Source: an uncultured Dehalococcoidia bacterium (lineage in GTDB: Bacteria; Chloroflexota; Dehalococcoidia; Lucifugimonadales; CAZGRI01). From it: a stretch of DNA of 55,222 nucleotides. Position numbers and translations under genes: made by a program. Positions within the stretch are counted from its first letter, which is position 1; every line of letters begins with the position of its first letter. This document shows, one piece after another, positions 6,950 through 28,465 of the stretch. The notes under the pieces were generated by a model, which was given only the letters and a program-made list of their open reading frames with translations, did no database searches and was not told where the DNA came from. Location of the stretch: the NCBI GenBank assembly GCA_964528205.1, contig CAZGRI010000001.1:1-55222 (forward strand). The letters are read 5' to 3'.

Positions 6950-8911
6950 CTATCGATCCCGGCCCAGGTGCTTGTCGAACCAGGCCAGCGTGCGGGATAG
7001 GTACTCCTCGCGGAGGCGCGGGTGGCCTCCCCTGAGGAACATGTGCGATGAACCCGGGAAGCGCACGAACTCCACCTCCTTGCCCAACCGTTTGAGGGCC
7101 ACGAAGTACTCCTCGCTCTGACCGATGGGGCACCGGTGGTCGTCCTCGCCGTGCATCAACAGGACCGGCGTCTCGACGCTGGGCGCATACGTGATGGGCG
7201 ACCGCTCCATGGCCAAGTCCGCGGACTCCCACGGCCTGGCGTGCCAGTTGAGCTCACCGAACCAGACCCCTATGTCGGAAGTGCCGTACATACTGTACAG
7301 GTCGGTACATGGGGCGCCCACGACGGCGGCCTTGAACCGGTGGTCGTGACCCACGATCCAGCTACTCATGTACCCTCCGTAGCTGTATCCGGTGACACCG
7401 AGGCGTTCAGAGTCGATGTACGGCTTGGCTGTCAAATCGTCCACCGCGGCCATGATGTCGAGATAGTCCTCTCCTCCCCAGTCCCCCAGCACAGCCTTGA
7501 CGAAGTCGACGCCGTAGGTCGACGAGCCGCGCGGGTTGACCGCCAGGACCACGTACCCGGCAGTCGCCAGCACCTGCTGGATAGGATTGAACGCATCGGC
7601 GAACACACCGTGGGGGCCACCGTGGATATCCAGGACCAAGGCGTAGGTTTCCGACGGGTCGAAGTCCGGAGGCAGCCAGACCCGCGACTCGATTTCCACA
7701 CCGTCCCGAGAGATGGTGGACTTCTCCAGACGGGCTGGAGGGTGCTGGTCGAGATAGGCCCGGTTATACAACGTGAGCTTTCGCTGAGTCCCGGTCGCCG
7801 TCTCGATCGAGGCGATGTCGCCAGGCGAGGCGGGCGCAGTCGCGACCATTGCGGCCCGGCGGGCGGTGGAGTCGAAAGCGGCAGCGCCGAGCTGAAGCCC
7901 GCCACCGGCTATCCATCGCACCTCTCCTCCTTGCACCGGTACCGCGCACAGGTAGGACTCTCCTCGCGCGTCCGCCAGGAACACGATATGGCCGTCGGGG
8001 GTCCACATGATCTCGGCCGGAGGCGTGACGGGTGGGTACCCGGCCTGTGGTGTGATGGAATCGTCGGTCAGCCGCCGGGGAGACTCACCGCGCTCCAGGA
8101 TGAACACCCAACCCTGACCCAGGCCGGCCGAGAGCTCGGCATCGTCCGAGCCGACCACGGCGATACGCCGGCCGTCGGGTGACCAGGCCAGCGGCCCAAC
8201 GCTGGCCAGCCCTTCCGACAATAGCTCGATCTCTCCTCCTGAGGCCGGCACCGCGTAAGCGCCGGTGGGGCTCATCACATCCCGATCGGGCCCCCGGTCG
8301 GACATGAAGGCGATCCTTGCCCCGTCCGGCGACCAGACCGGCGCGCCGTCGTCGCCATCGCCGTCTGTGATCTGACTAGCCTCGCCGGTCTCGGCGTCTA
8401 CCACGAACAGGTGCCGGAAGGCGTCGCCCCGCCAGCCGACGGTATCTCCCCTGTACTTGATGCGCCGCACCACACGGACCCGCGGGTCCGTCTTCGGGTC
8501 GTGGTCGTCGGGCAATCGGTCCGGGTCGACGTCGGACACTACGGCCAGAGAGAGTGAATCTGGAGACCAGGCGAACTCGCTCACCCCTCCGGGCAGTGTT
8601 GTCAGCCTGCGGGCCTCACCTCCGGTGGTCGGTATCGCCCAGAGCTGGCCGGCCCTCTTGTCGTCGCGGCGCAGGAACGCGATGGTCGTCCCGTCGGGAG
8701 AGAACTTGGGGGTGCTATCGTGATCGCCTGCGGTGAAGGGAAAGGGCTCGCCGTCGGGAAGCTCCATCGCCATGATACGCGACGGCGCTTCCATCGTCTG
8801 TTTGTCGACCTGGGACCTCGCGAACGCCAGCAGCGTCCCGTCGGGCGACAGTGATGGCGCTGATACGCCGACCAGTTGGTAGACCAGGTCGGGGCCTATT
8901 GGCTCAGGCAT
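6950..8911 (-). CDS. S9 family serine peptidase (prolyl oligopeptidase/acylaminoacyl-peptidase type) with an N-terminal PD40/TolB-like propeller
   Basis: PD40-type repeats (FSPDGTTIAF, WSPDGARIAF, WSPDGRRIAV). Nucleophile elbow GYSYGG, and a C-terminal ...HGEDDHRCP...GSSH. The start is set at ATG 8911 (MPEPIGPDLVYQL; AGGAGA 6 nt upstream), which matches the paralogue's N-terminus. Confidence 0.9.
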   Translation of the reverse strand: MPEPIGPDLVYQLVGVSAPSLSPDGTLLAFARSQVDKQTMEAPSRIMAMELPDGEPFPFTAGDHDSTPKFSPDGTTIAFLRRDDKRAGQLWAIPTTGGEARRLTTLPGGVSEFAWSPDSLSLAVVSDVDPDRLPDDHDPKTDPRVRVVRRIKYRGDTVGWRGDAFRHLFVVDAETGEASQITDGDGDDGAPVWSPDGARIAFMSDRGPDRDVMSPTGAYAVPASGGEIELLSEGLASVGPLAWSPDGRRIAVVGSDDAELSAGLGQGWVFILERGESPRRLTDDSITPQAGYPPVTPPAEIMWTPDGHIVFLADARGESYLCAVPVQGGEVRWIAGGGLQLGAAAFDSTARRAAMVATAPASPGDIASIETATGTQRKLTLYNRAYLDQHPPARLEKSTISRDGVEIESRVWLPPDFDPSETYALVLDIHGGPHGVFADAFNPIQQVLATAGYVVLAVNPRGSSTYGVDFVKAVLGDWGGEDYLDIMAAVDDLTAKPYIDSERLGVTGYSYGGYMSSWIVGHDHRFKAAVVGAPCTDLYSMYGTSDIGVWFGELNWHARPWESADLAMERSPITYAPSVETPVLLMHGEDDHRCPIGQSEEYFVALKRLGKEVEFVRFPGSSHMFLRGGHPRLREEYLSRTLAWFDKHLGRDR

Positions 8912-8986
8912 TGATGGTCTCCTATGTGACCTTCTCCCCACCGAATCTTGTGCCTATCCAGGGCCCGTCCCGGGAGGGGTGACGGC

Positions 8987-10963
8987 CTACACCTCTCTGC
9001 CCAACCATCTGTCGAACCATTCGAGCACGCGTGAGCAGTACTCCTCCCGCATCCGTGGATGGCCGGACCGGTAAAAGGAGTGGGAGCTGCCGGGGAACCT
9101 GACGTACTCCACCTCCTTGCCCAGGCGCTTCAGCGCCACGAAGTACTGCTCGCTCTGCTCGATGGGACAGCGAACGTCCTCCTCGCCGTGGAGCAATAGG
9201 ACCGGCGTCTCGACGTCGGCGACGTAGGTCAGCGGCGAGCGTTCCAAGAACTCATCGGCGTTGCCGTCGAACAGCTCCCCGAAGTGGATGTCGCTGAAGC
9301 GCACGCCGCTGTCAGAGGTACCGTAGTCGCTATACTGGTTGGTGGTCGGTGCACCGACGATGGCGGCCCGGAAGCGGTTGTCGTGTCCGACGATCCAGGC
9401 CGTCATGTAGCCCCCATAGCTATATCCAATGACGCCGAGCCGAGAGGTGTCCACGTAGGGCCTGGCGCTCGTTTCGTCCACGGCGGCCATTAGGTCCAGG
9501 AAGTCGGCGTTCCCCCAGTCGCGCTGGACCGCCCTCACGAAGTCGACGCCATAGGTCGCCGAACCCCTGGGATTCGGGGCCAGAACGATGTAGCCGGCGG
9601 TTGCCAGGACCTGCTGGGGAGGATGGAACGAGTCGTAGAAGCTGTTGTTGGGCCCGCCGTGGATGTCCAGGACCATCGGATAGCTCCCGGACGCGTCCAA
9701 GTCCGGCGGCAGCCACAGACGGCACTCTATCTCGACACCCTCACGCGACAGGGTGAACCTCTCCAGCCTCGCCGGTGAGTGGCTTCGAAAGTACGGCCGG
9801 TTGACCTCTGTTACACGGCGGCGAGCGCCGGTTGCCAGCTCGATGGTCTCGATGTCGCCGTACGTGTCGGGCGGCACACTCAACACCGCCGCGCGGCGGG
9901 CGTCGCGATCGAACGCGACGTCGGTGAACTGGGCCCCTCCACCGAGCCTACGAAGGCCCCGACCCTCGTAGGACAGCTCGCACACGTAGGACTCGCCCCG
10001 AACGTCCGCGAGGAACAGGAGCCGGCCGTCCGAAGTCCAGCGCCTGTCGGGCGTGCGGTCGGCGTAGCTGTACAGCGACGCCGGCATGATGGAGTCGTCG
10101 GTGATGCGGCGCGGCGGCCGGCCGGGCTCCAGGACGTACCACCACCCCTGCCACCCGGTGCCGACTGCGGGGTCATCTGAGCCTATGACAGCGAGCCTCT
10201 CGCCGTCTGGCGACCACACCGGCGCCGCCGCGCTCCAGAGCACCTGGGACCACTCCTCTGGCTCTCCTCCCTCGGCTGGGACCACGAAGGCGGCGGTATG
10301 AAACACCAGGTCGCGGTCCGGGCGGCGGTCAGAGGTAAACGCGATCCGGCCTCCGTCAGGGGACCAGGCGGGCGAGCCGTCGTCTCCCTCGCCGTGAGTG
10401 AGCTGACGGGAGTCGCCGGTCGAGCAGTCGACGACGAACAGGTGACGAAAGGCGTCGCCGCGCCAGCCCATGCCGTCGTCCCGGTATCGCAGGCGCCGCA
10501 CCACGCGGACGCGCGGGTCCGTCTTGGGGTCGTGACCGTCGGGCGGTCTGTCGGGGTCGACGTCCGAAACCACGGCCATACGTCGCGCGTCGGGTGACCA
10601 GGCGAAATCGACCACGCCTCCCGTCAGACGGGTCAGCTGTACCGCCTCTCCGCCGGATGTCGGGATAGTCCAGATCTGCGGCGTATTCCCATCGTCCGGT
10701 CGCAGGAACGCGATAGCCCTGCCGTCGGGCGAGAACTTCGGCGCCGTGTCCTGCTGGCCCGAGGTGAAGGGCACCGGCTCGCCGGCGGGCAGCGTCAGGC
10801 CCATGAGCTGCGAGCGGTACTCCATGGACTCTCGGTCGACCCTAGTGCGGACGAAGACCAGCCGCGAGCCGTCAGGCGAAAGCGAGGGGCTTGCGACGCC
10901 GGTCAGGTGATATACGAGGTCCGGGGCTATGGGACTCGGCACGGAACTGCCCAATTCTGACAA
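8987..10963 (-). CDS. S9 family serine peptidase, tandem paralogue of 6950..8911
   Basis: Same architecture as its neighbour (GYSYGG, HGEEDVRCP, GSSH). TTG 10963 is the maximal start. GTG 10942 (VPSPIAPDLVYHL) aligns best with the paralogue. Confidence 0.9.
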   Translation of the reverse strand: MSELGSSVPSPIAPDLVYHLTGVASPSLSPDGSRLVFVRTRVDRESMEYRSQLMGLTLPAGEPVPFTSGQQDTAPKFSPDGRAIAFLRPDDGNTPQIWTIPTSGGEAVQLTRLTGGVVDFAWSPDARRMAVVSDVDPDRPPDGHDPKTDPRVRVVRRLRYRDDGMGWRGDAFRHLFVVDCSTGDSRQLTHGEGDDGSPAWSPDGGRIAFTSDRRPDRDLVFHTAAFVVPAEGGEPEEWSQVLWSAAAPVWSPDGERLAVIGSDDPAVGTGWQGWWYVLEPGRPPRRITDDSIMPASLYSYADRTPDRRWTSDGRLLFLADVRGESYVCELSYEGRGLRRLGGGAQFTDVAFDRDARRAAVLSVPPDTYGDIETIELATGARRRVTEVNRPYFRSHSPARLERFTLSREGVEIECRLWLPPDLDASGSYPMVLDIHGGPNNSFYDSFHPPQQVLATAGYIVLAPNPRGSATYGVDFVRAVQRDWGNADFLDLMAAVDETSARPYVDTSRLGVIGYSYGGYMTAWIVGHDNRFRAAIVGAPTTNQYSDYGTSDSGVRFSDIHFGELFDGNADEFLERSPLTYVADVETPVLLLHGEEDVRCPIEQSEQYFVALKRLGKEVEYVRFPGSSHSFYRSGHPRMREEYCSRVLEWFDRWLGREV

Positions 10964-11997: not shown

Positions 11998-13413
11998 ATG
12001 ACGAGCGAGCAAGAGATCGAACTGATCGCCCACCTGATGCGGCGTGCCGGTTTCGGGGCGACCCGCGATGAGATCGAGCGGCGAGCAGAGCAAGGCTATG
12101 AGGCGACTGTAGAGGAGCTGCTACATCCCGAGACGCAACCCGAGGTCGACGAGTACATGCTCTACCGTTACCTCCCGATGACCGAGATCGCGTTCAGCCA
12201 CGTGCAGGGCGTCACGCACTGGCTCTACTACATGGTACACACGAGGCGCCCCCTGCAGGAAAAGATGGCGCTCTTTTACCATCATCTGTTCGCTACGGGG
12301 GATGCCAAGGTCAACGCCCCCAACCATATGCTCAGGCAGGTCCGGATATTTCGGGATCGTGGCATGGGCAACTATAAAGAGCTGCTTGTTCAACTGGCCA
12401 GGGACCCGGCCATGATCTTCTGGCTCGACAACAACTTGAACCACAAGGGTGCTCCCAACGAGAACTGGGGGCGCGAGCTTCTGGAGCTGTTCTCCATGGG
12501 CGTGGGTAGCTACACCGAGAGCGATGTGCTCGAGTGCTCCCGCGCGTTTACCGGCTGGACGATCAGCCCCAAAATCCCAACCTCGCCGTACGGGCGCTTC
12601 TACTGGCGATTCGCCTACCGCCCCGAAGACCATGACTCCTCGGAGAAGACCTTCCTGGGCAACACGGGACGCCTCAATGGCGAGGACGTCATAGACATCA
12701 TCGTCCAGCAGCCGGCGTGCCACAGATTCGTCGCCCGGCATCTATACAACTTCTTCGTGGCCGACGAACCACCGGTACCCCTGTGGCCCAGTGAGCCTCC
12801 GCGGGACCCGGAGGCCATCAGGACGCTGTCCGATGCGTTTGTCAGCTCCGGCTGCGAAATGAGACCGGTGTTACGGACGCTCTTTAACTCCGACTTCTTC
12901 AAAGACGCCATGTATCAGAAGGTCAGGAGCCCCATCGAGGTTTTTGTTGGGACTGTCCGGCTCACCCGCGACCTCGAGGGGCCTGCTGCTGGACTTCCCA
13001 TCATAGAGCCGGTGGCCAAAGAGCCGGGCTATATGGGGCAGAGCATCCTAGATCCACCCAGCGTAGAAGGCTGGCACGCCGGCCAGGGCTGGATCAACAG
13101 CGGCACCCTGGCCCAGCGAATCAACTTCGTAACCGATCGCGTCAGCAATACCGATCTACCGGGTGTCCAGGACATCGTCAGTCGAGTGGCCTCCGGAGGT
13201 ACCTCGATGACGCCCGATGCGTTCGTCGAACGGTGCCTGGACCTGATCGGACCGCTCAGGGTGGACGATTCCACGCGAGCCGAGCTGGAGGCCCATGTCG
13301 AGACCGACGGGTCGTTGAACTGGGCTACAGACGAAGGGTTCGCCGACCTGTCCCGCCGCGTCGGAGACACCCTGGCGCTAATCGCTTCGACCAGGGAGTA
13401 CCAATTCGGCTAG
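11998..13413 (+). CDS. DUF1800 domain protein (copy 1), no signal peptide
   Basis: LIAHLMRRAGFGATRDEIE and RDPAMIFWLDNNLNHKGAPNENWGRELLELFSMGVGSYTE..SRAFTGWT. ATG 11998 follows AAGGAGG by 6 nt. Confidence 0.85.
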   Translation: MTSEQEIELIAHLMRRAGFGATRDEIERRAEQGYEATVEELLHPETQPEVDEYMLYRYLPMTEIAFSHVQGVTHWLYYMVHTRRPLQEKMALFYHHLFATGDAKVNAPNHMLRQVRIFRDRGMGNYKELLVQLARDPAMIFWLDNNLNHKGAPNENWGRELLELFSMGVGSYTESDVLECSRAFTGWTISPKIPTSPYGRFYWRFAYRPEDHDSSEKTFLGNTGRLNGEDVIDIIVQQPACHRFVARHLYNFFVADEPPVPLWPSEPPRDPEAIRTLSDAFVSSGCEMRPVLRTLFNSDFFKDAMYQKVRSPIEVFVGTVRLTRDLEGPAAGLPIIEPVAKEPGYMGQSILDPPSVEGWHAGQGWINSGTLAQRINFVTDRVSNTDLPGVQDIVSRVASGGTSMTPDAFVERCLDLIGPLRVDDSTRAELEAHVETDGSLNWATDEGFADLSRRVGDTLALIASTREYQFG

Positions 13414-13444
13414 TCCACGGCTGACGGAATGTAAGGAAGAGGCG

Positions 13445-14578
13445 ATGACTGCGACAGCCAAAGCCCCGGTACTGGTGGTGTTGCAACTTACCGGTGGCAA
13501 CGACTACATGAACACCGTCATCCCTTACGCTGATTCCAACTACTATGACAGCAGGCCGGCGCTGGGAATTCCGGAAGACACCGTCCTCAAGCTGGACGAC
13601 GAGGTGGGTTTCCATCCATCCATGAGAGCCATGAAGGAGATCTACGTCCGGGGTGACATGGCAATCATTCACGGAGTTGGCTACCGGAACCCCTCCAGGT
13701 CTCACTTCAGGTCGATGGACATCTGGCATACCGCCGAGCCGGACGGCGTGGCAACCGAGGGGTGGCTGGGCAGGGTGGTTCGAGAGCTCGATCCAGAGGG
13801 CGAGAACCCCGTAACCGCTGTAAACATCGGCCAGGGTCTGCCGCGGGCTTTGGTTGCTCCTGGCGCCTCCGTCTCGTGCGTTGCCGACCTGTCGACCTAC
13901 GGGTTGCTCACCGGCATCGAGCGGGAGGCGCGGCGCACGAAAATGCTGGACCGATTTGCGGCCATGTACGCCCCGGCCGTGGGCACCGGCGTTGTGACGG
14001 ACTATCTGAGGCAAACGGGTACGGACCTTCTGAAGGGGGTCGACATCTTGAAGTCGGCTCTGGCGCCATACACCTCCGACGTCGAGTACGCCTCCAACGG
14101 CATCGCCAGCAGCTTGCGCGACATCGCCACGATCCACCTGGCTGACTTGGGGACTCGTATCTTCTACACGGAGCATGGCAGCTTTGACACGCATGGGGCG
14201 CAGGCCGGCACACATGCCAGGTTGTGGAACGAGGTCTCCGAGGCGATCTCCGATTTTTGGCATGACCTCAGAGAGCATGGTGCGGACAACAACGTTGTGA
14301 TGCTCCTTTTCTCCGAGTTCGGTCGTAGAGTCCGAGACAACGGCTCCGGGACCGACCATGGTGCTGCCGGCGTGGCGTTTGCCATAGGTCCAAAGGTCAA
14401 GGGAGGCCTGTACGGAGAGTACCCCGAGACCGGGGCGGCGGCGCTCTCCGAGGGCGACCTGGTCTCGAACCTGGACTTCCGCAGCGCGTACTCCAACATC
14501 GTCGAAGACTGGCTGGGCCTCGACGCCACGCCGATCGTCAACGGCCGGTTCCAGCATCCGGGTTTCATCGCAGGATAA
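13445..14578 (+). CDS. DUF1501 domain protein (sulfatase/alkaline-phosphatase-like fold, copy 1), no Tat or Sec signal
   Basis: Begins directly at the conserved core, MTATAKAPVLVVLQLTGGNDYMNTVIPY. Other family motifs seen: GYRNPSRSHFRSMDIWHTA, HGSFDTHG, FSEFGRRVRDNGSGTDHG. AAGGAAGAGG lies upstream. Confidence 0.85.
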   Translation: MTATAKAPVLVVLQLTGGNDYMNTVIPYADSNYYDSRPALGIPEDTVLKLDDEVGFHPSMRAMKEIYVRGDMAIIHGVGYRNPSRSHFRSMDIWHTAEPDGVATEGWLGRVVRELDPEGENPVTAVNIGQGLPRALVAPGASVSCVADLSTYGLLTGIEREARRTKMLDRFAAMYAPAVGTGVVTDYLRQTGTDLLKGVDILKSALAPYTSDVEYASNGIASSLRDIATIHLADLGTRIFYTEHGSFDTHGAQAGTHARLWNEVSEAISDFWHDLREHGADNNVVMLLFSEFGRRVRDNGSGTDHGAAGVAFAIGPKVKGGLYGEYPETGAAALSEGDLVSNLDFRSAYSNIVEDWLGLDATPIVNGRFQHPGFIAG

Positions 14579-14580
14579 CC

Positions 14581-15588
14581 ATGCGGACTACGACAGTGTC
14601 CGGGCGTACCTGGAGCTTCAGTCACTCCTTGGGGGCCTTCAGCGAGGAGGGCAAGGGCTTTCTTCATCCCACAGACGTGGCCGTCGCTCCGGGTGGCGTC
14701 CTCTACGTCGTGAGCAGGGGCCAGTTCGCAACTATGGACTCCAAAATCTCCAAAGACCGGCTCAGGATCACGAAGCTGACCATCGACGAGGAGTTCATCA
14801 GCGAGTTCGCGACGGGCCATTTCAGCTGGCCCGCGGGACTGGCCCTGGACAGCCAGGGCAACCTCTGCTGCTCGGATGAGCGCGACAATGTGATTCGCGT
14901 CTACAGCCCGGACGGCCAGAAGCTGGATGCCTGGGGACGGGAAGGCGCTGACGTTGGCCAGTTCAGCGGCCCGTCCGGCCTCGCTTTCGACGGCGAGGAT
15001 ACTCTGTACGTAGTGGACACGTTCAACAGCCGAGTCCAGCGTTTCACGCGCGACGGCGCCGGTCTCGGGGGTTGGGGCGGCGCCGGCGTCGGTGAAGGGG
15101 AGTTCGACCGGCCCTGGGGGGTCACCATAGATGACAAGGGCGACGTCTATGTGGCCGATTGGGGAAACGACCGGGTCCAGAAGTTCGCGCCTGACGGCTC
15201 GTTCCTTATGAGCTTCGGCTCTGCTTCCTATGGAGGTGAGCTGGACCACCCGGCGGACGTGGCGGTCGATACCCAGGGCGACGTGTACGTGACCGACTGG
15301 GGCAACAAGCGTGTGCAGATCTACGATGCCACCGGCGAGATACTGACGGCGCTCTACGGCGACGCCATAGAGTTCTCGCAGTGGGGCCGGCTGAAGATGG
15401 AGGGCAACGAAGAGGTCGCCAAGGCGTACGCTAGGGTCGAGGATCTGTCCCCGCTGGGCAAATTCGACAGGCCAAGGGGCATAGCGATCGACGAGAGGGA
15501 CCGAGTCATCGTCGTTGACAGCACCCGCTGCCGGCTACAGGTCTACGCCAAGGAGGACGGCTACTCCGATCCTGAGTTCAACCTCTGA
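14581..15588 (+). CDS. NHL-repeat beta-propeller protein (copy 1)
   Basis: Repeated NHL units (PSGLAFDGEDTLYVVDTFNSRVQRF; PWGVTIDDKGDVYVADWGNDRVQKF; PADVAVDTQGDVYVTDWGNKRVQIY). The ATG sits 2 nt after the DUF1501 stop. Confidence 0.85.
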   Translation: MRTTTVSGRTWSFSHSLGAFSEEGKGFLHPTDVAVAPGGVLYVVSRGQFATMDSKISKDRLRITKLTIDEEFISEFATGHFSWPAGLALDSQGNLCCSDERDNVIRVYSPDGQKLDAWGREGADVGQFSGPSGLAFDGEDTLYVVDTFNSRVQRFTRDGAGLGGWGGAGVGEGEFDRPWGVTIDDKGDVYVADWGNDRVQKFAPDGSFLMSFGSASYGGELDHPADVAVDTQGDVYVTDWGNKRVQIYDATGEILTALYGDAIEFSQWGRLKMEGNEEVAKAYARVEDLSPLGKFDRPRGIAIDERDRVIVVDSTRCRLQVYAKEDGYSDPEFNL

Positions 15589-16559: not shown

Positions 16560-16778
16560 CTGGTTCGCCTTTCCTAGATGACCTGCGAGAGTCCGCCCCT
16601 ACCGGCCACACGGCCACGACCGCTGTCAGATATCGGAGCGGCTCGATGGGCCGCGCCATTGTATCAAAAGACAGCAGCTCAGGGCACACCGGGACCCCCA
16701 CCCCGTTCTTGCCGGGCGCGACGCCACGGTGTTAGACTCGTCAGACTCTGGCGCACCCTTGGTCAGGAGCTACTGACA

Positions 16779-18095
16779 GTGCCTAAGGGCGACCCTCGAA
16801 ACGGGGTCTACTATGGCTGGTTCGTGCTTGCCGCATGCTTCTTCGCCATGTTCGTATCGGTGGGTGGGCGCAACGGCTTCGGCGTGTTCATCATCGACAT
16901 GACCGACGACTTCGGCTGGAGCCGCGGGACCATATCCATGGCGATAGCGATCGGCTGGCTGGTCAACGGCGCCAGCCAGCCCTTCCTCGGTCGCCTGTAC
17001 GACAGGTTCGGCGGGCGCAGGACGATCTCCATCAGCCTCGTCGTGCTGGGCGCCGGCACGATGCTCCTGAGCCGGACCAATAGCGTCTGGTTTCTCATCC
17101 TGGTCTACGGCGTGGTGATGTCGGTGGCGGCGGGCGGCGCCTCGCTGGTCACCATCCACGCGCTTCTGGCCAGATGGTTCTATCGCAGACGGGGCCAGGT
17201 GCTGAGCATCTCCACGGCTGGGGCATCGGCGGGCGCCCTGGTGCTTGCGCCATTCGCCGCGTATCTGATCCTGGTGGTCGGCTGGCGCATGACGTGGACG
17301 GTGATGGGCGCAATGATACTCCTGCTGGCGGTGCCGCTAGCGTTTCTGATGATAAGGGACGATCCGGCCGACATTGGAGAACAGCCCGATGGCGACGGTG
17401 ACCGGAGTGATAGAGGCGGACGTCCCAGGTCGAGAGACGGCTATCAGCGGGGACCGCTTGAGGCCGACGACTGGCGGGAGTCGTACAGGACTCGCCCGAT
17501 GTGGCAGCTTACGGGCGCCTATTTCGTCTGCGGCATGACCACGGCGATAATATCGGCGCACTACGTTCCGTTCGCCATAGACCGGGGCGCCTCGCTCGGC
17601 ACCGCGGCCCTGGCCTTCGGGCTCATGAGCGGTCTCAACGTCATAGGCGTGCTGGCTGTGGGCACGATGTCCGACCGCCTGAGCCGGAAGAACCTGCTGG
17701 GCACGGTCTACGCGGTGCGTGGCCTCGCCTATCTGATGCTGCTGCTGGCCCCGGGCGCCTGGGCCCTGTGGGGGTTCGCCGTGATCGCGGGCATGTCGTG
17801 GATAGCCTCGGCCCCGCTGACCTCGTCGCTTACGGCGGACATCTACGGGATCAGGAACATGGGCGTGCTGAACGGCATGGCGACATTCTCCCATCAGATC
17901 GGAGGAGCCCTCAGTATCTACCTCGGTGGGACGCTCTACGACCTGTTCGGCGCATACGACGTGCCGTTCGCCATCGCGGGAGCGATGCTTGTGGGCGCCA
18001 GTATCGCGAGCTTCAGCATCAAAGAACGGGCGTACTCGTCGCGATACCAGCCGCCGCAACGCGTGCCGGTCCCCGCCGCCGCCGATGGCGACTAG
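16779..18095 (+). CDS. MFS transporter (oxalate/formate-antiporter-like or monocarboxylate type)
   Basis: About 12 hydrophobic helices and the motif GRLYDRFGGRRT after TM2. GTG 16779 has AGGAG 9 nt upstream. The ORF-track extension back to 16578 is Arg/Pro-rich and overlaps the divergent promoter region. Confidence 0.85.
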   Translation: MPKGDPRNGVYYGWFVLAACFFAMFVSVGGRNGFGVFIIDMTDDFGWSRGTISMAIAIGWLVNGASQPFLGRLYDRFGGRRTISISLVVLGAGTMLLSRTNSVWFLILVYGVVMSVAAGGASLVTIHALLARWFYRRRGQVLSISTAGASAGALVLAPFAAYLILVVGWRMTWTVMGAMILLLAVPLAFLMIRDDPADIGEQPDGDGDRSDRGGRPRSRDGYQRGPLEADDWRESYRTRPMWQLTGAYFVCGMTTAIISAHYVPFAIDRGASLGTAALAFGLMSGLNVIGVLAVGTMSDRLSRKNLLGTVYAVRGLAYLMLLLAPGAWALWGFAVIAGMSWIASAPLTSSLTADIYGIRNMGVLNGMATFSHQIGGALSIYLGGTLYDLFGAYDVPFAIAGAMLVGASIASFSIKERAYSSRYQPPQRVPVPAAADGD

Positions 18096-18130
18096 CCGGT
18101 CCGTCCAGGCCCGCGTCTGATCTGAGACAC

Positions 18131-19240
18131 GTGAAGATCTCGACTTCAACCACCCTGGTCCCCGCTCGCTACTCCAGGCCCCTCGACCGCGCGGACGGCT
18201 CCGAAGGCGGGTCGCTTATCGAGGTCTCCGACGACGGCGTCGTCCTCGACCTCGCCGGCGCCGTGCTGGATGGAGAGGACTTCACCGGCCTGGGATTCTA
18301 CGTCCACGACTGCGAGTCCGTCACGATCGAGAACGGCGTCATCAAAGGCTTCTACTACGGGATTAGGGCGGAAAACGTTCGCAGGCTGACCATCCGAAAC
18401 TGCGTCGTGTCGGACAATCACAACCCGCGGGATGTGGGATGGCTCCCGGACACCGGCGACCCGGTGGAGGACGGCTTCGGCGGCGGGGTCTATCTGCGTG
18501 ACGTGTCCGATAGCCTGTTTGAGAACAACGAGCTCAACGACAACTTCGACGGCATCCTGCTTGTGGGCTCGGACCGGAACACCCTCCGCAATAACAACGC
18601 GTCGTACAACAGCAACGTCGGGATCCACCTGGTCCGATCGAGCCACAACGTCCTGGAGGAGAACCGGGCGGACCACTGCATACGCTACACGGGCGATTTC
18701 TGGTGCGACACGGCCGACTCGGCGGGCATGCTCCTGGAGGAGTACTCCCATCACAACAGGATCGTGGGCAACAGCCTGCGCTATGGGGGCGACGGCTTCT
18801 TCATCAGGGCCAACAACCGGCACGGCTGCAGCCACAACTACGTGGCGAAGAACGACGCGAGCTTCTCGCCCAACAACGCCTTCGAGGCGGGTTTCTCCCA
18901 GCACAACCTCTTCGAGGACAACGTCGCGGACTTCTCCAACTACGGCTTCTGGCTCGGCTACTCCCGCAACACGACGGTTCGACGAAACAGCGTCAGGTCG
19001 AACCGCTTCGACGGAGTCGCCATCGAGGAGGGGCGCCACAACCTGATCGAGGAGAACGACATCGAGGGCAACCGGTACGGGATAAGGCTCTGGGGGGCAA
19101 TCTCGGACGACGACGAGGGCCCATCGGAGGTCTGTGCCGTCCGCGGCAATAGGATAACGGGATCGAGGGAGGCTGGAGTGGTGTTCCCCACGGGGGACAA
19201 CGTCTTTCGCGCCAACCGTAAGGACGTTGAGAGCTCGTGA
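18131..19240 (+). CDS. Right-handed parallel beta-helix repeat protein (NosD/pectin-lyase-fold-like)
   Basis: Serial PbH1-type repeats (IRNCVVSDNHN, FENNELNDNFDGILL, LRNNNASYNSNVGIHL, LEENRADH, IVGNSLRYGGDGFFI, FEDNVADFSNYGFWL, VRRNSVRSNRFDGVAI, IEENDIEGNRYGIRL). The ORF-track start 17501 overlaps the MFS gene. The first in-frame start after the MFS stop is GTG 18131, so the start is uncertain. Confidence 0.7.
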   Translation: MKISTSTTLVPARYSRPLDRADGSEGGSLIEVSDDGVVLDLAGAVLDGEDFTGLGFYVHDCESVTIENGVIKGFYYGIRAENVRRLTIRNCVVSDNHNPRDVGWLPDTGDPVEDGFGGGVYLRDVSDSLFENNELNDNFDGILLVGSDRNTLRNNNASYNSNVGIHLVRSSHNVLEENRADHCIRYTGDFWCDTADSAGMLLEEYSHHNRIVGNSLRYGGDGFFIRANNRHGCSHNYVAKNDASFSPNNAFEAGFSQHNLFEDNVADFSNYGFWLGYSRNTTVRRNSVRSNRFDGVAIEEGRHNLIEENDIEGNRYGIRLWGAISDDDEGPSEVCAVRGNRITGSREAGVVFPTGDNVFRANRKDVESS

Positions 19241-19253
19241 CGGCCCGGCCGCT

Positions 19254-19475
19254 ATGATTGGCGTACCAGAAAGCCTGAAGCCCGTCGTCTTCCTGGCCCA
19301 CCACTCCGAGCCGGGCGACCCCGACCTGCTGGAGTGGATCAGGCATCAGATCGACACGATGCTGGGCCTGGGCCCGCTCTACATCGTCGTGCTTCTCGGC
19401 ATCGTGGTCCTGGCCATCCCGCTGGGCATAACCGTGCTGTTCCTCCTCAACCGCCGCCGCGGGGCCCGGTCATAG
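19254..19475 (+). CDS. Small single-pass membrane protein (hypothetical)
   Basis: One clear TM helix (LGPLYIVVLLGIVVLAIPLGITVLFLL) followed by NRRRGARS. It begins 14 nt after the beta-helix gene. No clear SD motif. Confidence 0.35.
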   Translation: MIGVPESLKPVVFLAHHSEPGDPDLLEWIRHQIDTMLGLGPLYIVVLLGIVVLAIPLGITVLFLLNRRRGARS

Positions 19476-19493
19476 GGGCCCGCTCACAAGCTC

Positions 19494-22382: not shown

Positions 22383-22500
22383 AGCCTCCGTCCAGTCCGC
22401 TAGGGTGCGCGCCACAGAGCGTTGTAATAGGATAGCCCGCCGGCTTACGCTTTGGGAAGCGGCTGTGGTCGCACACGAGTCGCGTCCGCCCGGCATGGTG

Positions 22501-22616
22501 GGCCTTATGCGGCGGGCAGACGTTTCAACCTCACTTCTTGGTTTCCCCTCTCCATGTCCGATGGAGAGGGGACTCACTCAACCGCGCCTCACCCATTGGC
22601 CAGGTAGGGGTGAGGT
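22501..22616 (+). repeat. Nested-hairpin intergenic element, copy 1
   Basis: Perfect 11-bp inner stem cccctctccat/atggagagggg (22545-22571). Outer pairing acctcac/gtgaggt. Confidence 0.75.
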
Positions 22617-24837: not shown

Positions 24838-25866
24838 TCAGGTTACCTCCAGCGTCGGGTTTCTCAGGGCATCGGCGTACTGGGTCCGGTCCAGCGGGAT
24901 GAATTCCTTCTGGTATACCTGGATGCGGTACGACTCGTAGTCGGCGATGAACAGGCGGAACTCGTCGTCTATACGGACCGATCTCGGCCGCCTCAGATAC
25001 TTCTCCTGTTCCATTCTCCCAGTCTCCCTGTGCCTGTTGGGCACAGCGTTTGTGAGCATATAGGTCCGGGCCACGCGGGATAGGGATGCGTCACCCCTGA
25101 AAGTCCAGATGTACCGGCCCTCCGCGTTAAACATCTGCACACGGTCGTTGCCCCAGTCCGCGACGTATATGTCGCCATGTCCATCGACCGCGATGCCGGT
25201 AGGCCTGTCGAACTCCGACTCGCCGGCGCCGGCCGAGCCCACGACGTTCTTCAGCTCGCCGTCGCCGGAGAAGACCTGAAACCTGTTATTGCCCCAGTCG
25301 GCCACATAGACGTCGCCGCGCTCATCGACGTGGAGTCCCCAGGGCAGGTCCATCTCTCCCGGCTGTGTGCCGTGCGAGCCGAAGCCGTCTATGTACTCGC
25401 CTTCGGGCGTGTACCGCTGGATCCTGTGGTTCTTGGAGTCGACGACGGCGAGGTTCCCCTCGGGATCGAAGGCTATGCCGGCCGGGCCGTCGAACTCACC
25501 GTCTCCGTCGCCGGTCGAACCCCACTTCGAAACGAACTCTCCGGCCTCGTCGAACCTTGTAATCCGGTTGGTCGACTCGTCGCTGACGAAGATATGTCCG
25601 TCATTGTTGGTGATGATCTGCACGGGCCAGATGAGCTCGCCATCGCCGGTCCCGTAGCGACCGAATTCCTGGAGCTCGTCGGTTAGCTGATCCGAGTCCT
25701 CTATGGACCAGATCCTGATCTGGGCGGTCCCCTCCGAGCGCATGAGTATGTAGATCTTGCCGTTCTCTCCGAAGGCGACGTCGGCGGGGAAGTTCGATAC
25801 CCGACGCATGCCGAGCGTCTTCAGATACGGGTAGCCTGCTCTGAGCAGACCGTGTGGGCGTCCCAT
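24838..25866 (-). CDS. NHL-repeat beta-propeller protein (copy 2)
   Basis: PAGIAFDPEGNLAVVDSKNHRIQRY; PWGLHVDERGDVYVADWGNNRFQVF; PTGIAVDGHGDIYVADWGNDRVQMF. GAAGGAGG lies 6 nt upstream of the ATG. Confidence 0.85.
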   Translation of the reverse strand: MGRPHGLLRAGYPYLKTLGMRRVSNFPADVAFGENGKIYILMRSEGTAQIRIWSIEDSDQLTDELQEFGRYGTGDGELIWPVQIITNNDGHIFVSDESTNRITRFDEAGEFVSKWGSTGDGDGEFDGPAGIAFDPEGNLAVVDSKNHRIQRYTPEGEYIDGFGSHGTQPGEMDLPWGLHVDERGDVYVADWGNNRFQVFSGDGELKNVVGSAGAGESEFDRPTGIAVDGHGDIYVADWGNDRVQMFNAEGRYIWTFRGDASLSRVARTYMLTNAVPNRHRETGRMEQEKYLRRPRSVRIDDEFRLFIADYESYRIQVYQKEFIPLDRTQYADALRNPTLEVT

Positions 25867-25884
25867 AGAGGCCTCCTTCAGAGC

Positions 25885-27021
25885 TCAGGACCTGAACGGA
25901 GATATCTGCTCGTAGTCACCCTTTACGATGGGTTGGGCCTCCACTTCGAGCCACTGCTCCAGTACCGTCCCGTAGATGCCCCGGAAGTCGATCGTGTGCT
26001 TCAGGTCCTCGCCGTGTTCCCAGTCTGCTGGGTCCAGGGAGGGGTATTCAGAGTAGAGGCCGCCGTCTATGCTGTTTCCGAACATAAAGGCGCCTCCACC
26101 GGAACCGTGGTCCGTCCCGCTGCCGTTGTCGCGCATGCGGCGTCCGAACTCGGTGAACGCGAACACGGTGACGCGGTCGCCGGCGTCGTGCTCTTCCAGG
26201 TCGTCCAGGAAGTCTGAGATCGCCCCTGAGACTTCCGTCATAAGCTTGGGGTGGCCCGCCAGTTCATTGGCGTGCGTGTCGTAGCCTCCGTGGCTCGTGT
26301 AGAAGACCCTCGTTCCGAGGTCAGCCAGATGGATCCTCGCGACGTCCCTGAGGCTCTTGGCTATTGCGTTGTCCGCGTACTCCACCGACGACGTGTACCG
26401 GTCCGCGACGTCGGATAGCAGGTCCGCTCCCTTGAGAACATCCACACCCGTCTGCCCTATGTATTCCGATACCGGCCCGGTGCCTATGGCCTGTCCGTAG
26501 ATCGATTTGAAAGCCTGGATGGCCTTGTCCCGCAACTGCTCCTGTTCGAGGCGGTTCATGACCCCGTAGCCTTCCAGGTCTCCGATAGACGTGACCGGCA
26601 CTCCCGCGACCGCCATCGCTCTCGGGAGCCCCTGGCCGATGTTCACTCCGGTGAGCACGTTCTCCGAGTTCGGGTCCAGCTCTCTGACGGCCTGCCCCAG
26701 CCAGCCCTCGCTGCCAATCCTGTCCGGTTCGGCGGTGTGCCAGATGTCCATCCCCCTGAAATGAGACCTGTTCGAGTCCGGGTATCCGATGCCCTGGATA
26801 ATCGCCATCCGCTTCTCGTCATAGAGTCTCTTGAAAGGGGTCGCGTTGGAGTTGATGGCGAGCTCATCAGTTATGGGCAGGACCTCGTCCCGACCGACGA
26901 CGATCTTCTTCCGGGCATCGTAGTAGTGCTCGTTGGTGTATGGCACTATCGTGTTGATAAAGTCGTTTCCGCCGGTAAGCTGAACGACTACGAGCGTGTT
27001 CTCCGCGGTACTTGTAGCCAT
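25885..27021 (-). CDS. DUF1501 domain protein (copy 2), no Tat or Sec signal
   Basis: MATSTAENTLVVVQLTGGNDFINTIVPY, GYPDSNRSHFRGMDIWHTA, HGGYDTHA, FTEFGRRMRDNGSGTDHG. Colinear with 13445..14578. Confidence 0.85.
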   Translation of the reverse strand: MATSTAENTLVVVQLTGGNDFINTIVPYTNEHYYDARKKIVVGRDEVLPITDELAINSNATPFKRLYDEKRMAIIQGIGYPDSNRSHFRGMDIWHTAEPDRIGSEGWLGQAVRELDPNSENVLTGVNIGQGLPRAMAVAGVPVTSIGDLEGYGVMNRLEQEQLRDKAIQAFKSIYGQAIGTGPVSEYIGQTGVDVLKGADLLSDVADRYTSSVEYADNAIAKSLRDVARIHLADLGTRVFYTSHGGYDTHANELAGHPKLMTEVSGAISDFLDDLEEHDAGDRVTVFAFTEFGRRMRDNGSGTDHGSGGGAFMFGNSIDGGLYSEYPSLDPADWEHGEDLKHTIDFRGIYGTVLEQWLEVEAQPIVKGDYEQISPFRS

Positions 27022-27058
27022 GCTTGTCCCCCCGTGAGACCTTTCGGCTGAATTCGCG

Positions 27059-28465
27059 TTAGGCGAACTGGTAGTCGACGGTCGACGCCAGCATCTGCAG
27101 AACGTTGTGGACCCCTACAGAATCGGCGCCGTTTTCGTCCCTTATCTCACTCAGCTCCTTTGTATACGAGACCAGCGAGTTGTAGGTCGACTCGCTGACC
27201 CCGATCGCTCCCATAAGGTCCAGGCATCGGTCGACTATCTGTGACGGGTCGTCGTCGAGGCTGCCGGCGCGGGAGAGAATGTCTCTGACGCCGGGCTTGG
27301 ACCGGTCTTCGAACTGTCTCTCCACGAACCCGATCCTCTCGCTGAGAGTCCCGGAGTCGATCCACTCGTGGCCTGTATGCCATCCTTCCACAGTCGGGGG
27401 GTTCATCAGCCTCTGGCCCATGATCGCCAGCGGCCCTTCATACAGGGAGCCGTTCAGCGTCGTGACTGCGAACTCGTGAATGCCTGGACTTGGAGAGCTG
27501 AACTCACCGGTCTGCTTCAGCACGCCTGCTATAAGCTCGGTTGGGCTTTTGACCTTTCGGAGGTTGATCGACCTTCGGAAGAATTCGGAGCTGAACAGCT
27601 CCCTCAGGACCGCTCTCATGTCTCCGTCTGTTTCGATGAACACCTCCGAAAGCTGTGAGACGGCTTGTTTGTCCTTTGGCGGAACTGTCTGCCACGAAGG
27701 CACCTGTGTCTCGTCCTCTACAAAGAAGTTGTACAGGTGTCTGGAGATGAACCTGGCGGTCGCGGGCTGTCTGACGATGATATCGATTATGTCTTCGCCG
27801 TCGAAATTGCCCTTGTGGCAGAGGAACTCCTTCTCCCCCTCGTCGTGGTCTTCAGGCAGGAACTCGAACTCCGAGGGATAGTGCCCAACGGGATAGAGTG
27901 AAAGAGGCTGTCGGAAAGTCCATCCGGTAAACGCGCGGGAGGCGCCCTTTATATCGTCCTCCGTGTAGTTTCCGACGCCCATCGAGAACAACTCCAGTAG
28001 CTCTCTGCCGTAGTTCTCATTGATCTCGTCCTTGTGGTTCTCATTGTTGTCGAGCCAGAAGATCATGGCGGGATCGCGGGACAGCTCCAGCAGTATTCTC
28101 CTGAGATTCGTCATGCCCACTTCGCGGAACATGCCGATCTCTCTGTACATGGAGTGGCCGTGCTCGCTCTTACCCCAGGCGGCAGGGAAGAGATGGTGCA
28201 GGAAGAGGGACATCTTCTCTTCGAGCGGCCGCCTGGTGTTTACCATTCGGTACAGCCATTTGCCCACGTGGATGGCGACCTGCTCGCCGCCGTAGTACCG
28301 GTCCACGTAAGAGGTGTCCACGGCCGGAAACCGCTCCGGCGTCACCAGGTCGTCGACGATTTCCTCATAGGTCTGCTCTCTTGTCAGAACGTCGAGCTCC
28401 GCCGGCGTGGCTCCGAAGCCCGCGCGCCTCATCAGGTGGGCCACAAGCGATCGATCGGATTTCAT
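27059..28465 (-). CDS. DUF1800 domain protein (copy 2), no signal peptide
   Basis: LVAHLMRRAGFGATPAELD and RDPAMIFWLDNNENHKDEINENYGRELLELFSMGVGNYTE..SRAFTGWT. ATG 28465 has GGAGGAG 8 nt upstream. Confidence 0.85.
   Translation of the reverse strand: MKSDRSLVAHLMRRAGFGATPAELDVLTREQTYEEIVDDLVTPERFPAVDTSYVDRYYGGEQVAIHVGKWLYRMVNTRRPLEEKMSLFLHHLFPAAWGKSEHGHSMYREIGMFREVGMTNLRRILLELSRDPAMIFWLDNNENHKDEINENYGRELLELFSMGVGNYTEDDIKGASRAFTGWTFRQPLSLYPVGHYPSEFEFLPEDHDEGEKEFLCHKGNFDGEDIIDIIVRQPATARFISRHLYNFFVEDETQVPSWQTVPPKDKQAVSQLSEVFIETDGDMRAVLRELFSSEFFRRSINLRKVKSPTELIAGVLKQTGEFSSPSPGIHEFAVTTLNGSLYEGPLAIMGQRLMNPPTVEGWHTGHEWIDSGTLSERIGFVERQFEDRSKPGVRDILSRAGSLDDDPSQIVDRCLDLMGAIGVSESTYNSLVSYTKELSEIRDENGADSVGVHNVLQMLASTVDYQFA

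Follow-up and report, generated by a model that had tools for sequence, protein, structure and literature searches.

A conserved DUF1800–DUF1501–NHL gene triad without export signals, present as two diverged copies in a Dehalococcoidia contig: a candidate cytoplasmic version of a widespread gene pair

Why should DUF1800 and DUF1501, a gene pair whose DUF1501 member normally carries a twin-arginine (Tat) export leader, occur twice on one contig with no leader at all and with a gene for an NHL propeller as third neighbor? This question was raised by contig CAZGRI010000001.1 of an uncultured Dehalococcoidia bacterium (GenBank assembly GCA_964528205.1), of which we analyzed positions 1 to 55,222. 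This whole stretch of 55,222 nucleotides (nt), with a G+C content of 64%, is referred to as the window, and the closest named protein-cluster member came from a SAR202 cluster bacterium metagenome-assembled genome (MAG). An earlier reading, made from the sequence alone, had described three closely packed, co-directional genes at 11998-15588, had assigned them to DUF1800, DUF1501, and a six-bladed NHL propeller as third partner, and had found the same triad in the same order at 24838-28465. All details of gene layout, spacing, and direction were confirmed when the sequence was read, the second copy was found on the minus strand, and Pfam models matched all six proteins. The answer that we modestly favor is that the window contains two old paralogous copies of a conserved three-gene operon, which would be a cytoplasmic version of the DUF1800–DUF1501 pair.

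Copy 1 is on the plus strand and is composed of the DUF1800 gene (11998..13413; 471 amino acids (aa), all-alpha), the DUF1501 gene (13445..14578; 377 aa), and the NHL gene (14581..15588; 335 aa). The spacers measure 31 nt and 2 nt, respectively, and at the second junction the DUF1501 TAA (14576-14578) is followed by 'cc' and then by the NHL ATG at 14581. A Shine-Dalgarno sequence, AAGGAGG, was observed 7 nt upstream of the DUF1800 ATG at 11998, and AAGGAAGAGG precedes the DUF1501 start. Copy 2, on the minus strand, contains the DUF1800 gene (27059..28465; 468 aa), the DUF1501 gene (25885..27021; 378 aa, N-terminus MATSTAENTLVVVQLTGGND), and the NHL gene (24838..25866; 342 aa), with spacers of 37 nt and 18 nt; here, GGAGGAG is found before the DUF1800 ATG at 28465, and AAGGAGG before the NHL ATG at 25866. 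Public gene calls agree on the starts, giving the same six protein lengths. The DUF1800 model (PF08811, cut-off 26.1) matched copy 1 with E = 1e-98 and 331.8 bits and copy 2 with E = 2.5e-90 and 304.4 bits, the match spanning model positions 1-418 of 419. The values for the DUF1501 model (PF07394, cut-off 27) were E = 8e-27 and 94.8 bits for copy 1, and E = 5.5e-25 and 88.8 bits for copy 2. For the NHL repeat (PF01436), they were E = 5e-39 and 7e-39, respectively. All these Pfam matches exceed the gathering scores. No second Pfam family was found on DUF1800 or DUF1501 at E ≤ 10, and NCBIfam contains no model for either of them. The two copies share 47% identity for DUF1800, 51% for DUF1501, and 36% for NHL, indicating that they are old paralogues and not the outcome of a recent duplication.

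Export signals were assessed with a heuristic test, based on the Kyte-Doolittle 19-residue average and on an RR motif with an h-region, and this was backed by the N-termini of 71 orthologues. None of the six window proteins contained a hydrophobic segment, the highest 19-residue average being 1.15, and no RR motif followed by an h-region was found in any of them. In both the DUF1501 and the NHL gene, no start codon is available between the nearest upstream in-frame stop and the start used. The longest open reading frame (ORF) of the copy 1 DUF1800 begins at GTG 11932 and adds 22 residues, and the longest possible extension in the other copy is of 25 residues; neither is hydrophobic. The HLMRRAGFG stretch of DUF1800 was considered as a Tat motif and rejected: the Pfam domain begins with this conserved stretch, which is not followed by a hydrophobic region. 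The copy 1 DUF1501 starts 13 residues ahead of the QLTGGND motif, and the 71 DUF1501 orthologues from other genomes all start with M-x-x-x-K-K-D-P-V-x-V-V-L-Q-L-T-G-G-N-D. When the ORF of an orthologue could be extended, the upstream part was unconserved, non-hydrophobic, and often overlapped the DUF1800 gene. These start and hydrophobicity checks agree with the earlier proposals that even the longest ORFs leave no room for a signal peptide and that DUF1501 begins directly at its conserved core, and no upstream in-frame start revealed a Tat or general secretory (Sec) signal. As judged from these N-termini, none of the six window proteins carries a Tat or Sec signal, and the triad module is very likely cytoplasmic.

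The lack of a leader distinguishes these DUF1501 proteins from most of their relatives. A word-indexed search with DUF1501 gave more than 8,000 clusters at 90% identity, and the best 120 of them were 375-393 aa long, the named ones being from Chloroflexi or Dehalococcoidia MAGs. DUF1800 likewise gave more than 8,000 clusters at 90% identity, and the triad-type clusters of both families were mostly from marine and sponge-associated Dehalococcoidia. An exhaustive HMMER search with one DUF1501 query against 1.84 billion representatives at 50% identity then returned 13,454 DUF1501 relatives (50%-identity clusters). At this level of clustering, the signal-less clade is made of two or three full-length representatives, i.e., P0241 (64% identical), P0244 (46%), and P0299 (40%). 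In nearly all the other listed full-length relatives, with 46% identity or less, the match begins at about residue 30-80, indicating an N-terminal extension. About 20 such N-termini were read, and all but one were textbook Tat leaders (RRxFLK and then a hydrophobic stretch), such as MNPKLSRRDLLRHGATFIAVGIAAP; the remaining one, from P0246, is hydrophobic but lacks the RR motif. The leader that is absent from the triad DUF1501 measures roughly 30-70 residues in the Tat-type relatives, typically about 40, and includes the twin-arginine motif.

As a control set, we used 80 metagenome loci collected with an alignment of Tat-type DUF1501 proteins. The DUF1501 leader contained the RR motif in 75 of these 80 loci, was KR or Sec-like in four, and was missing in one, which sits on a short contig. 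DUF1800 was directly upstream of DUF1501 in 50 of 55 control loci, and three individually inspected Tat-type pairs matched this picture. An NHL gene within 4 kb was found in none of the 56 control loci with at least 1.1 kb of downstream sequence, and a ferric uptake regulator (Fur)-family gene, hereafter FUR, in none of the 80, indicating that both NHL and FUR are specific to the signal-less clade. In DUF1501, the absence of the Tat leader and the presence of the NHL gene mark one and the same clade. For DUF1800, the absence of a signal is not unusual, because most of its canonical partners also lack a leader of their own, and only about 10 of 59 showed a Tat-like one. The sequence-only reading had regarded DUF1800/DUF1501 as a widespread pair of unknown function whose DUF1501 is normally a Tat substrate, and had asked whether the signal-less proteins form a clade of their own; both points were borne out by the controls and by the relatives outside the clade.

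The conservation of the triad was then addressed in a GTDB survey, in which one genome per species was scanned with a DUF1501 alignment and 80 loci with the closest DUF1501 relatives were returned. Nearly all were from Dehalococcoidia, SAR202, or Chloroflexota MAGs, many of them from sponges, and the set also included one record labelled Entotheonella and one Gammaproteobacteria. Triads were called with phmmer, the window proteins serving as queries against every ORF in these loci. In about 69 of the 80 loci, DUF1800, DUF1501, and NHL followed one another in this order on one strand, and 63 loci remained under strict spacing criteria. The triad was also present on five further metagenome contigs (L002-L006) and, with a signal-less DUF1501, in a Tectimicrobiota MAG (L177) and a Rokuibacteriota MAG (L179). 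A high-G+C contig, L095, which encodes the 40%-identical signal-less DUF1501 P0299, showed the arrangement Peripla_BP_2 lipoprotein–DUF1800–DUF1501–NHL. Its genes are closely packed and partly overlapping: the Peripla_BP_2 gene overlaps the triad start, and DUF1501 and NHL overlap each other. The signal-less triad is, therefore, present in at least three phyla. Moreover, the pairwise identities of the three proteins correlate with r = 0.87-0.90 across 65 triads, with medians of 43% for NHL, 55% for DUF1800, and 60% for DUF1501. The nearest neighbors of each window copy are identical for all three genes: L009, L010, L012, and L015 for copy 1 (with L011 too for DUF1501 and NHL), and L069, L078, and L062 for copy 2. 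Collectively, the three genes are inherited and diverging together. The NHL adjacency is thus conserved beyond this genome, and the earlier argument that its recurrence denotes a functional unit instead of chance neighbors is upheld by the conserved order, the co-divergence, and the absence of NHL from the canonical pairs. That the three genes form a co-functional unit is, in our view, highly probable.

Variants of the arrangement were also recorded. Extra NHL paralogues are found in tandem after the triad in L030 (7131-8192) and L035 (9498-11731), and before a FUR gene in L084 (219-1250). An ORF of about 108 aa, one example of which starts with MTPEAKQRYIDLARERPDILCSEAPPEV, lies directly after NHL and on the same strand in 13 loci (L019:9237-9560, L021:9376-9777, L039:9317-9649, L048:9654-9980, and nine more). 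Neither Pfam nor NCBIfam has a match for this ORF, which is missing from the window and could be a fourth component in some lineages. In L052, L057, and L088, a lone signal-less DUF1501 is directly followed by a gene for a small retropepsin-like aspartyl protease of about 135 aa (PF13650/PF13975; 8141-8560, 8142-8543, and 8128-8565, respectively). L044 keeps both DUF1800 and NHL, and there the retropepsin-like gene (8182-8661) sits between DUF1501 and NHL.

Next, we asked what each protein might do. DUF1501 gave no match in a PDB sequence search, even at E ≤ 1, and a structural model was generated from a 43-sequence alignment, with a predicted local distance difference test (pLDDT) score of 72 and a predicted TM-score (pTM) of 0.81. 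When this model was compared by Foldseek, 94 PDB matches were obtained at E ≤ 1e-3, and the top 50 belonged almost all to the alkaline-phosphatase superfamily, including S1 sulfatases, choline sulfatase, LtaS, YejM/PbgA, sulfamidase, and phosphonate monoester hydrolase, with E = 1e-6 to 1e-4 and a TM-score of about 0.4. This is in agreement with the sulfatase/alkaline-phosphatase-like fold that had been suggested for the family. The alignments showed five invariant motifs, GGND (20), RSHF (85-88), DTH (248-250), EFGRR (291-295), and GTDHG (302-306). The invariant residues are placed as expected for the superfamily, judging by motif position: D20 is at the end of strand 1, within GGND, where the core alpha/beta fold has a metal-binding Asp, RSHF follows the second core strand, which is the position of the superfamily nucleophile, and GTDHG provides the D-H pair near the C-terminus. 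The formylglycine motif C/S-x-P-x-R is absent from the alignments, where the equivalent segment reads G-Y-x-N-(S/P)-x-R-S-H-F-R-S-M-D. As the motifs are invariant in the Tat-type set too, exported and signal-less DUF1501 proteins probably share their chemistry. The model gives DUF1501 the fold of an alkaline-phosphatase/sulfatase enzyme, and its metal and nucleophile motifs are intact.

The AlphaFold model of DUF1800 (pLDDT 82.6, pTM 0.87) was mostly helical, with a small sheet. Foldseek of this model against the PDB gave a best E of 0.36, i.e., no fold match, and the PDB sequence search gave no match even at E ≤ 1, so DUF1800 is a confidently predicted fold without a PDB counterpart. Over 45 sequences, about 90 positions did not vary, and His, Glu, Asp, or Arg occupied many of these. 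Four triad-type DUF1800 proteins (P0451, P0452, P0464, and P0484), relatives of the one encoded at L040:5505-6950, have a precomputed match to PF07587 (PSD1/DUF1553), which hints at a kinship between DUF1800 and the PSD1 proteins that pair with DUF1501 in planctomycetes. In Entotheonella, an intracellular-vesicle fraction that accumulates arsenic and barium has W4LJC4 and W4LDN1, both DUF1800 proteins, among its 15 most abundant proteins (PMC12981691). L040, a MAG labelled Entotheonella, carries the signal-less triad, and W4LJC4 and W4LDN1 could not be tied to the triad type.

In the NHL protein, six blade motifs are readable, P-x-G-[VIL]-A-x-D...YV-x-D...N-x-R-[VI]-Q, which bears out the six-bladed propeller. 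The best PDB sequence matches were the six-bladed NHL domains of TRIM71 (phmmer E of 7e-73) and PknD. Between blades 5 and 6, the orthologues share a conserved insertion that is specific to the clade (residues about 258-295), and their conserved positions are otherwise mostly those of the repeat signature. The ScyF equivalog model (NF035926) gave 187 and 164 bits, below its cut-off of 350. From these alignments, we regard the NHL protein as a non-enzymatic subunit with a binding or adaptor role.

A clue to the signal to which the module may respond came from related loci. A FUR gene (PF01475) was found immediately upstream of DUF1800, on the same strand, in L002-4, L006, L009, L010, L012, and L015, which are the closest relatives of copy 1, and likewise in the Tectimicrobiota locus L177. 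A second Fur-family subtype closely follows NHL in L063, L073, and L087, and precedes DUF1800 in L084. FUR genes are thus beside triads in at least three arrangements and in two phyla, Chloroflexota and Tectimicrobiota. Both subtypes score best with the PerR, Fur, and Irr models of NCBIfam. Every upstream-FUR operon that was searched for a box contained a 7-1-7 palindrome, with TTRGAAT-N-ATTCYAA as the predicted operator, between a TTGACA-type promoter and the FUR start codon: TTAGAATCATTCTAA in L009 and L015, TTGGAATGATTCTAA in L010, TTGGAATCATTCCAG in L012, TTAGAATGATTCTAC in L002, and TCGGAATCATTCCGA in L177. Palindromes of this kind (AAT-N-ATT core with at least six of seven arm pairs) were found in 0.3% of control 200-nt windows, and the exact degenerate pattern occurred three times in all 180 loci, each time at a FUR–triad operon. 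The adjacent Fur-family regulator, therefore, appears to control its own operon, as far as can be read from the predicted operators. Another orthologous group, with seven loci that have no adjacent FUR gene, showed a Fur/PerR-like box at about -147, TTATAATCATTATCA in three loci and TTATAATCGTTATCA or TTATAATGGTTATCA in the other four. Other apparent FUR boxes were discounted because they coincide with ordinary -10 elements, and only the palindromic boxes were relied on. Because of the Fur link, the box, and the Peripla_BP_2 gene in L095, which is a link to uptake of the iron type, the sequence data suggest that the function of the triad is metal-responsive or peroxide-responsive, with iron or haem as the leading guess, and we place moderate confidence in the link to metal.

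Some features of the surrounding DNA touch on expression. Many triads have a TTGACA-N17-TAnAnT promoter 60-130 nt upstream of DUF1800, and hence long leaders; in L020, L022, L024, L025, L028, L029, and L032, the promoter is about 100-130 nt upstream. Rfam detected no riboswitch or other RNA in the window or in nine loci with long leaders, and scans for consensus promoters and terminators around both window copies gave only chance-level matches inside genes. Bufferin-like clusters of ribosomally synthesized and post-translationally modified peptides are linked to copper stress, and one of them (BufA1 PF10048, MbnB/TglH PF05114, HvfC_N PF09836) is found at L177:9884-11820 on the minus strand, convergent beside the FUR–triad operon; this adjacency may be a coincidence.

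Taking these data together, we propose the following working model. DUF1501 would be the catalytic subunit and, as a member of the alkaline-phosphatase superfamily, would hydrolyze or transfer phospho- or sulfo-esters in a metal-dependent way, with D20, D248/H250, and D304/H305 as putative metal ligands and Ser86, in R-S-H-F, as the putative nucleophile. DUF1800 would be its obligate helical partner. In the exported versions, DUF1800 would travel with its own Tat leader or, when leaderless, probably by hitch-hiking on DUF1501, and such riding would mean that the pair is exported folded, as a physical DUF1800·DUF1501 complex. The NHL propeller may be a third subunit or a substrate adaptor that was recruited when the pair became cytoplasmic. 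In many relatives, a dedicated Fur-family repressor encoded ahead of or beside the operon would act through the predicted 7-1-7 operator, so that the module would be switched by a cytoplasmic metal signal (iron or haem being the leading guess) or by peroxide. The window copies have either lost or never had this regulator and its box, and their expression may differ. The roles assigned to each subunit are held with moderate confidence, on the basis of motifs and predicted folds, and we infer the three-component complex indirectly, from the conserved gene order, the 2-nt spacing, and co-divergence.

Several observations weigh against this model. DUF1501 is alone in seven of the 80 GTDB loci and occurs with NHL but without a detectable DUF1800 in two, indicating that the partners are not strictly obligatory in cis. 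The confidence of the DUF1501 structural model is only moderate (pLDDT 72), and the catalytic residues were placed by motif position, with no residue-level structural alignment. Across the NHL orthologues, there is no invariant catalytic-looking cluster and no conserved His cluster. FUR adjoins the triad in only about 10% of the GTDB loci, and none of the regulators beside the triads reaches the NCBIfam cut-off of the PerR, Fur, Irr, or Zur models; the generic enrichment of FUR boxes partly overlaps ordinary -10 TATAAT elements. In the window, tblastn found no FUR homologue, TNNTAATNATTANNA had no match at up to two mismatches, no AAT-N-ATT palindrome was present, and the sole match to TTRGAATNATTCYAA has three mismatches and is inside a gene, at chance level. 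The suggested metal regulation is thus a lead for the family rather than for these two copies. Finally, in the papers searched, no function was given for DUF1800 or DUF1501, and the triad was not described.

A more specific proposal, which we regard as tentative and unlikely to be right in full, is that the triad is a metal-homeostasis system, i.e., a cytoplasmic enzyme complex that is governed by a dedicated Fur-family sensor and that releases or processes compounds carrying a metal inside the cell, e.g., iron, haem, or other metallophore cargo. If this were true, the equivalent chemistry would take place in the periplasm in the case of the Tat-exported DUF1800/DUF1501 family, which counts more than 13,000 clusters at 50% identity.

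Other explanations of the same data were weighed against the proposed cytoplasmic complex. The one that survives best, though we think it improbable, is that the three proteins are co-regulated steps of one pathway that form no physical complex, with NHL as an independent enzyme or binding protein. The gaps between DUF1501 and NHL, often of 30-150 nt and not overlapping in the relatives, would fit this arrangement, and so would the loci with DUF1501 alone or with extra NHL paralogues and the faster divergence of NHL in comparison with DUF1800 and DUF1501. The tight co-divergence (r of about 0.9), the 2-nt spacing in the window, and the DUF1501/NHL overlap in L095 point instead to a closer association, and the NHL protein has a clade-specific insertion and lacks a conserved catalytic-looking cluster.

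Somewhat more doubtful is a catabolic module, in which a cytoplasmic DUF1501 esterase and its helpers would cleave imported phosphate or sulfate esters or phosphonates as part of the use of dissolved organic matter by SAR202. The paralogous copies would then reflect substrate diversification, and the Fur link of some lineages would be secondary. The Foldseek result, which puts DUF1501 nearest to sulfatases and phosphonate monoester hydrolase, is consistent with this proposal, as are the presence of at least two diverged copies in these genomes and the neighbors found in the window and in relatives, which include CoA-transferases, short-chain dehydrogenases/reductases (SDRs), luciferase-like monooxygenases, hydantoinases, amidohydrolases, and a major facilitator superfamily (MFS) transporter. 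However, no transporter or catabolic gene is consistently linked, the neighborhoods vary by locus, the type-I sulfatase motif C/S-x-P-x-R is absent, and the only recurrent regulatory partner is the Fur-family gene, with no sugar or phosphate regulator.

It is very improbable that the proteins are still exported, through an unrecognized signal or by hitch-hiking on an unlinked Tat substrate. The leaderless state of most canonical DUF1800 proteins, whose partner is a Tat substrate, makes piggy-back export plausible in principle, but no leader was found on any of the three proteins in the window or in the orthologues across the 80 loci, no candidate carrier gene is linked, and a Fur-family sensor of cytoplasmic metal, absent from the Tat-type loci, fits an intracellular role. 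That the adjacency is due to chance or merely to inherited synteny, as the often lineage-specific synteny of the genes around the triad might suggest (e.g., OTCase, Der, PlsY, and PriA), is effectively refuted by the conservation data, since the triad is kept while its flanks change, across at least three phyla, two copies of 36-51% identity in one genome share the gene order, and NHL is beside none of the 56 canonical pairs. A defence system was also considered and rejected, as PADLOC gave no match for DUF1800 or DUF1501 and only a weak, repeat-level match of 29.6 bits for NHL.

Regarding the neighborhood at large, the ORFs that flank triads (about 240) and canonical pairs (111) were clustered and scanned with Pfam, and no consistent partner was found in this survey except FUR, the extra NHL paralogues, and the unannotated 108-aa ORF. 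OTCase, Der, PlsY, MqnA, PriA, and leucine-rich repeat (LRR) genes were rejected as partners because they reflect lineage synteny. In the window, copy 1 sits in the opposite orientation between the genes for the B and A subunits of a CoA-transferase (PF01144; 10973-11944 and 15636-16559, minus strand). Such A and B subunit genes are normally adjacent, as in L014, where the triad has a distantly related (33-35% identical), uninterrupted A/B pair divergently upstream of it; the split genes of the window suggest a local rearrangement in its lineage. Just upstream of the CoA-transferase B gene are two tandem paralogous genes for S9 prolyl-oligopeptidases with PD40 propeller N-terminal domains (6950-8941 and 8987-10963, minus strand; 663 and 658 aa). 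The interval between the triads (16578-22577) encodes an MFS transporter, a right-handed beta-helix protein that is NosD-like, and a fusion protein of 1027 aa in which FAD-oxidase, 4Fe-4S, and CCG domains are combined. The MFS and beta-helix genes overlap when their longest ORFs are taken (16578-18095 and 17501-19240, respectively), and in the near-identical contig L007 the beta-helix gene is called shorter, with 369 aa.

DUF1800 and DUF1501 are very large families of unknown function, and the triad gives a first experimental handle on them. The loss of the Tat leader going along with the gain of NHL is a natural experiment, and the regulator with a readable operator, present in several lineages, offers a route to the inducing metal or oxidant.

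When compared with known systems, the triad NHL protein shares, by sequence, the repeat signature and the six-blade architecture of the NHL propellers of TRIM71, the PknD sensor domain, ScyF, and peptidylamidoglycolate lyase (PAL), and differs from them in being stand-alone, signal-less, and equipped with the blade 5/6 insertion; the PAL-type His triad is not conserved in it. The FUR–triad operons resemble autoregulated Fur-family operons, with the regulator gene first and a 7-1-7 palindrome between the promoter and the start codon, whereas the triad genes are not known members of any Fur-family regulon. The consensus of the iron control element (ICE) of Irr is TTTAGAA-N3-TTCTAAA (PMC1698941). 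The L009 box, TTTAGAATCATTCTAAT, agrees with this consensus at 13 of its 14 specified positions, and the core is equal; this likeness is a resemblance, not proof of a shared effector. The triad-adjacent regulators have two CxxC pairs, which Irr is not known to have.

In planctomycetes, DUF1501 is known from the literature on the Planctomycetes–Verrucomicrobia–Chlamydiae (PVC) group to pair with PSCyt/PSD1 proteins (DUF1549/DUF1553). This arrangement is similar to the triad in that DUF1501 occurs with a large partner protein of unknown function, and is set apart by the description of its partners, which are exported and often contain a cytochrome c domain; to our knowledge, no NHL or Fur link exists for them. 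With the alkaline-phosphatase superfamily, DUF1501 has in common the predicted core fold and, at equivalent positions, metal-ligand motifs made of Asp and His and a nucleophilic hydroxyl group that follows the second core strand. It differs in having no sequence similarity to any solved structure and no formylglycine motif, in its smaller size (377 aa), and in that it needs, or at least always travels with, DUF1800. The closest known system is the canonical DUF1800–DUF1501 pair, which belongs to the same Pfam families (PF08811/PF07394), in the same order, and whose GGND, RSHF, DTH, EFGRR, and GTDHG motifs are invariant in both types. In contrast to this pair, the triad has a DUF1501 without the Tat leader, a co-directional NHL gene after it, and a Fur-family gene as a frequent neighbor.

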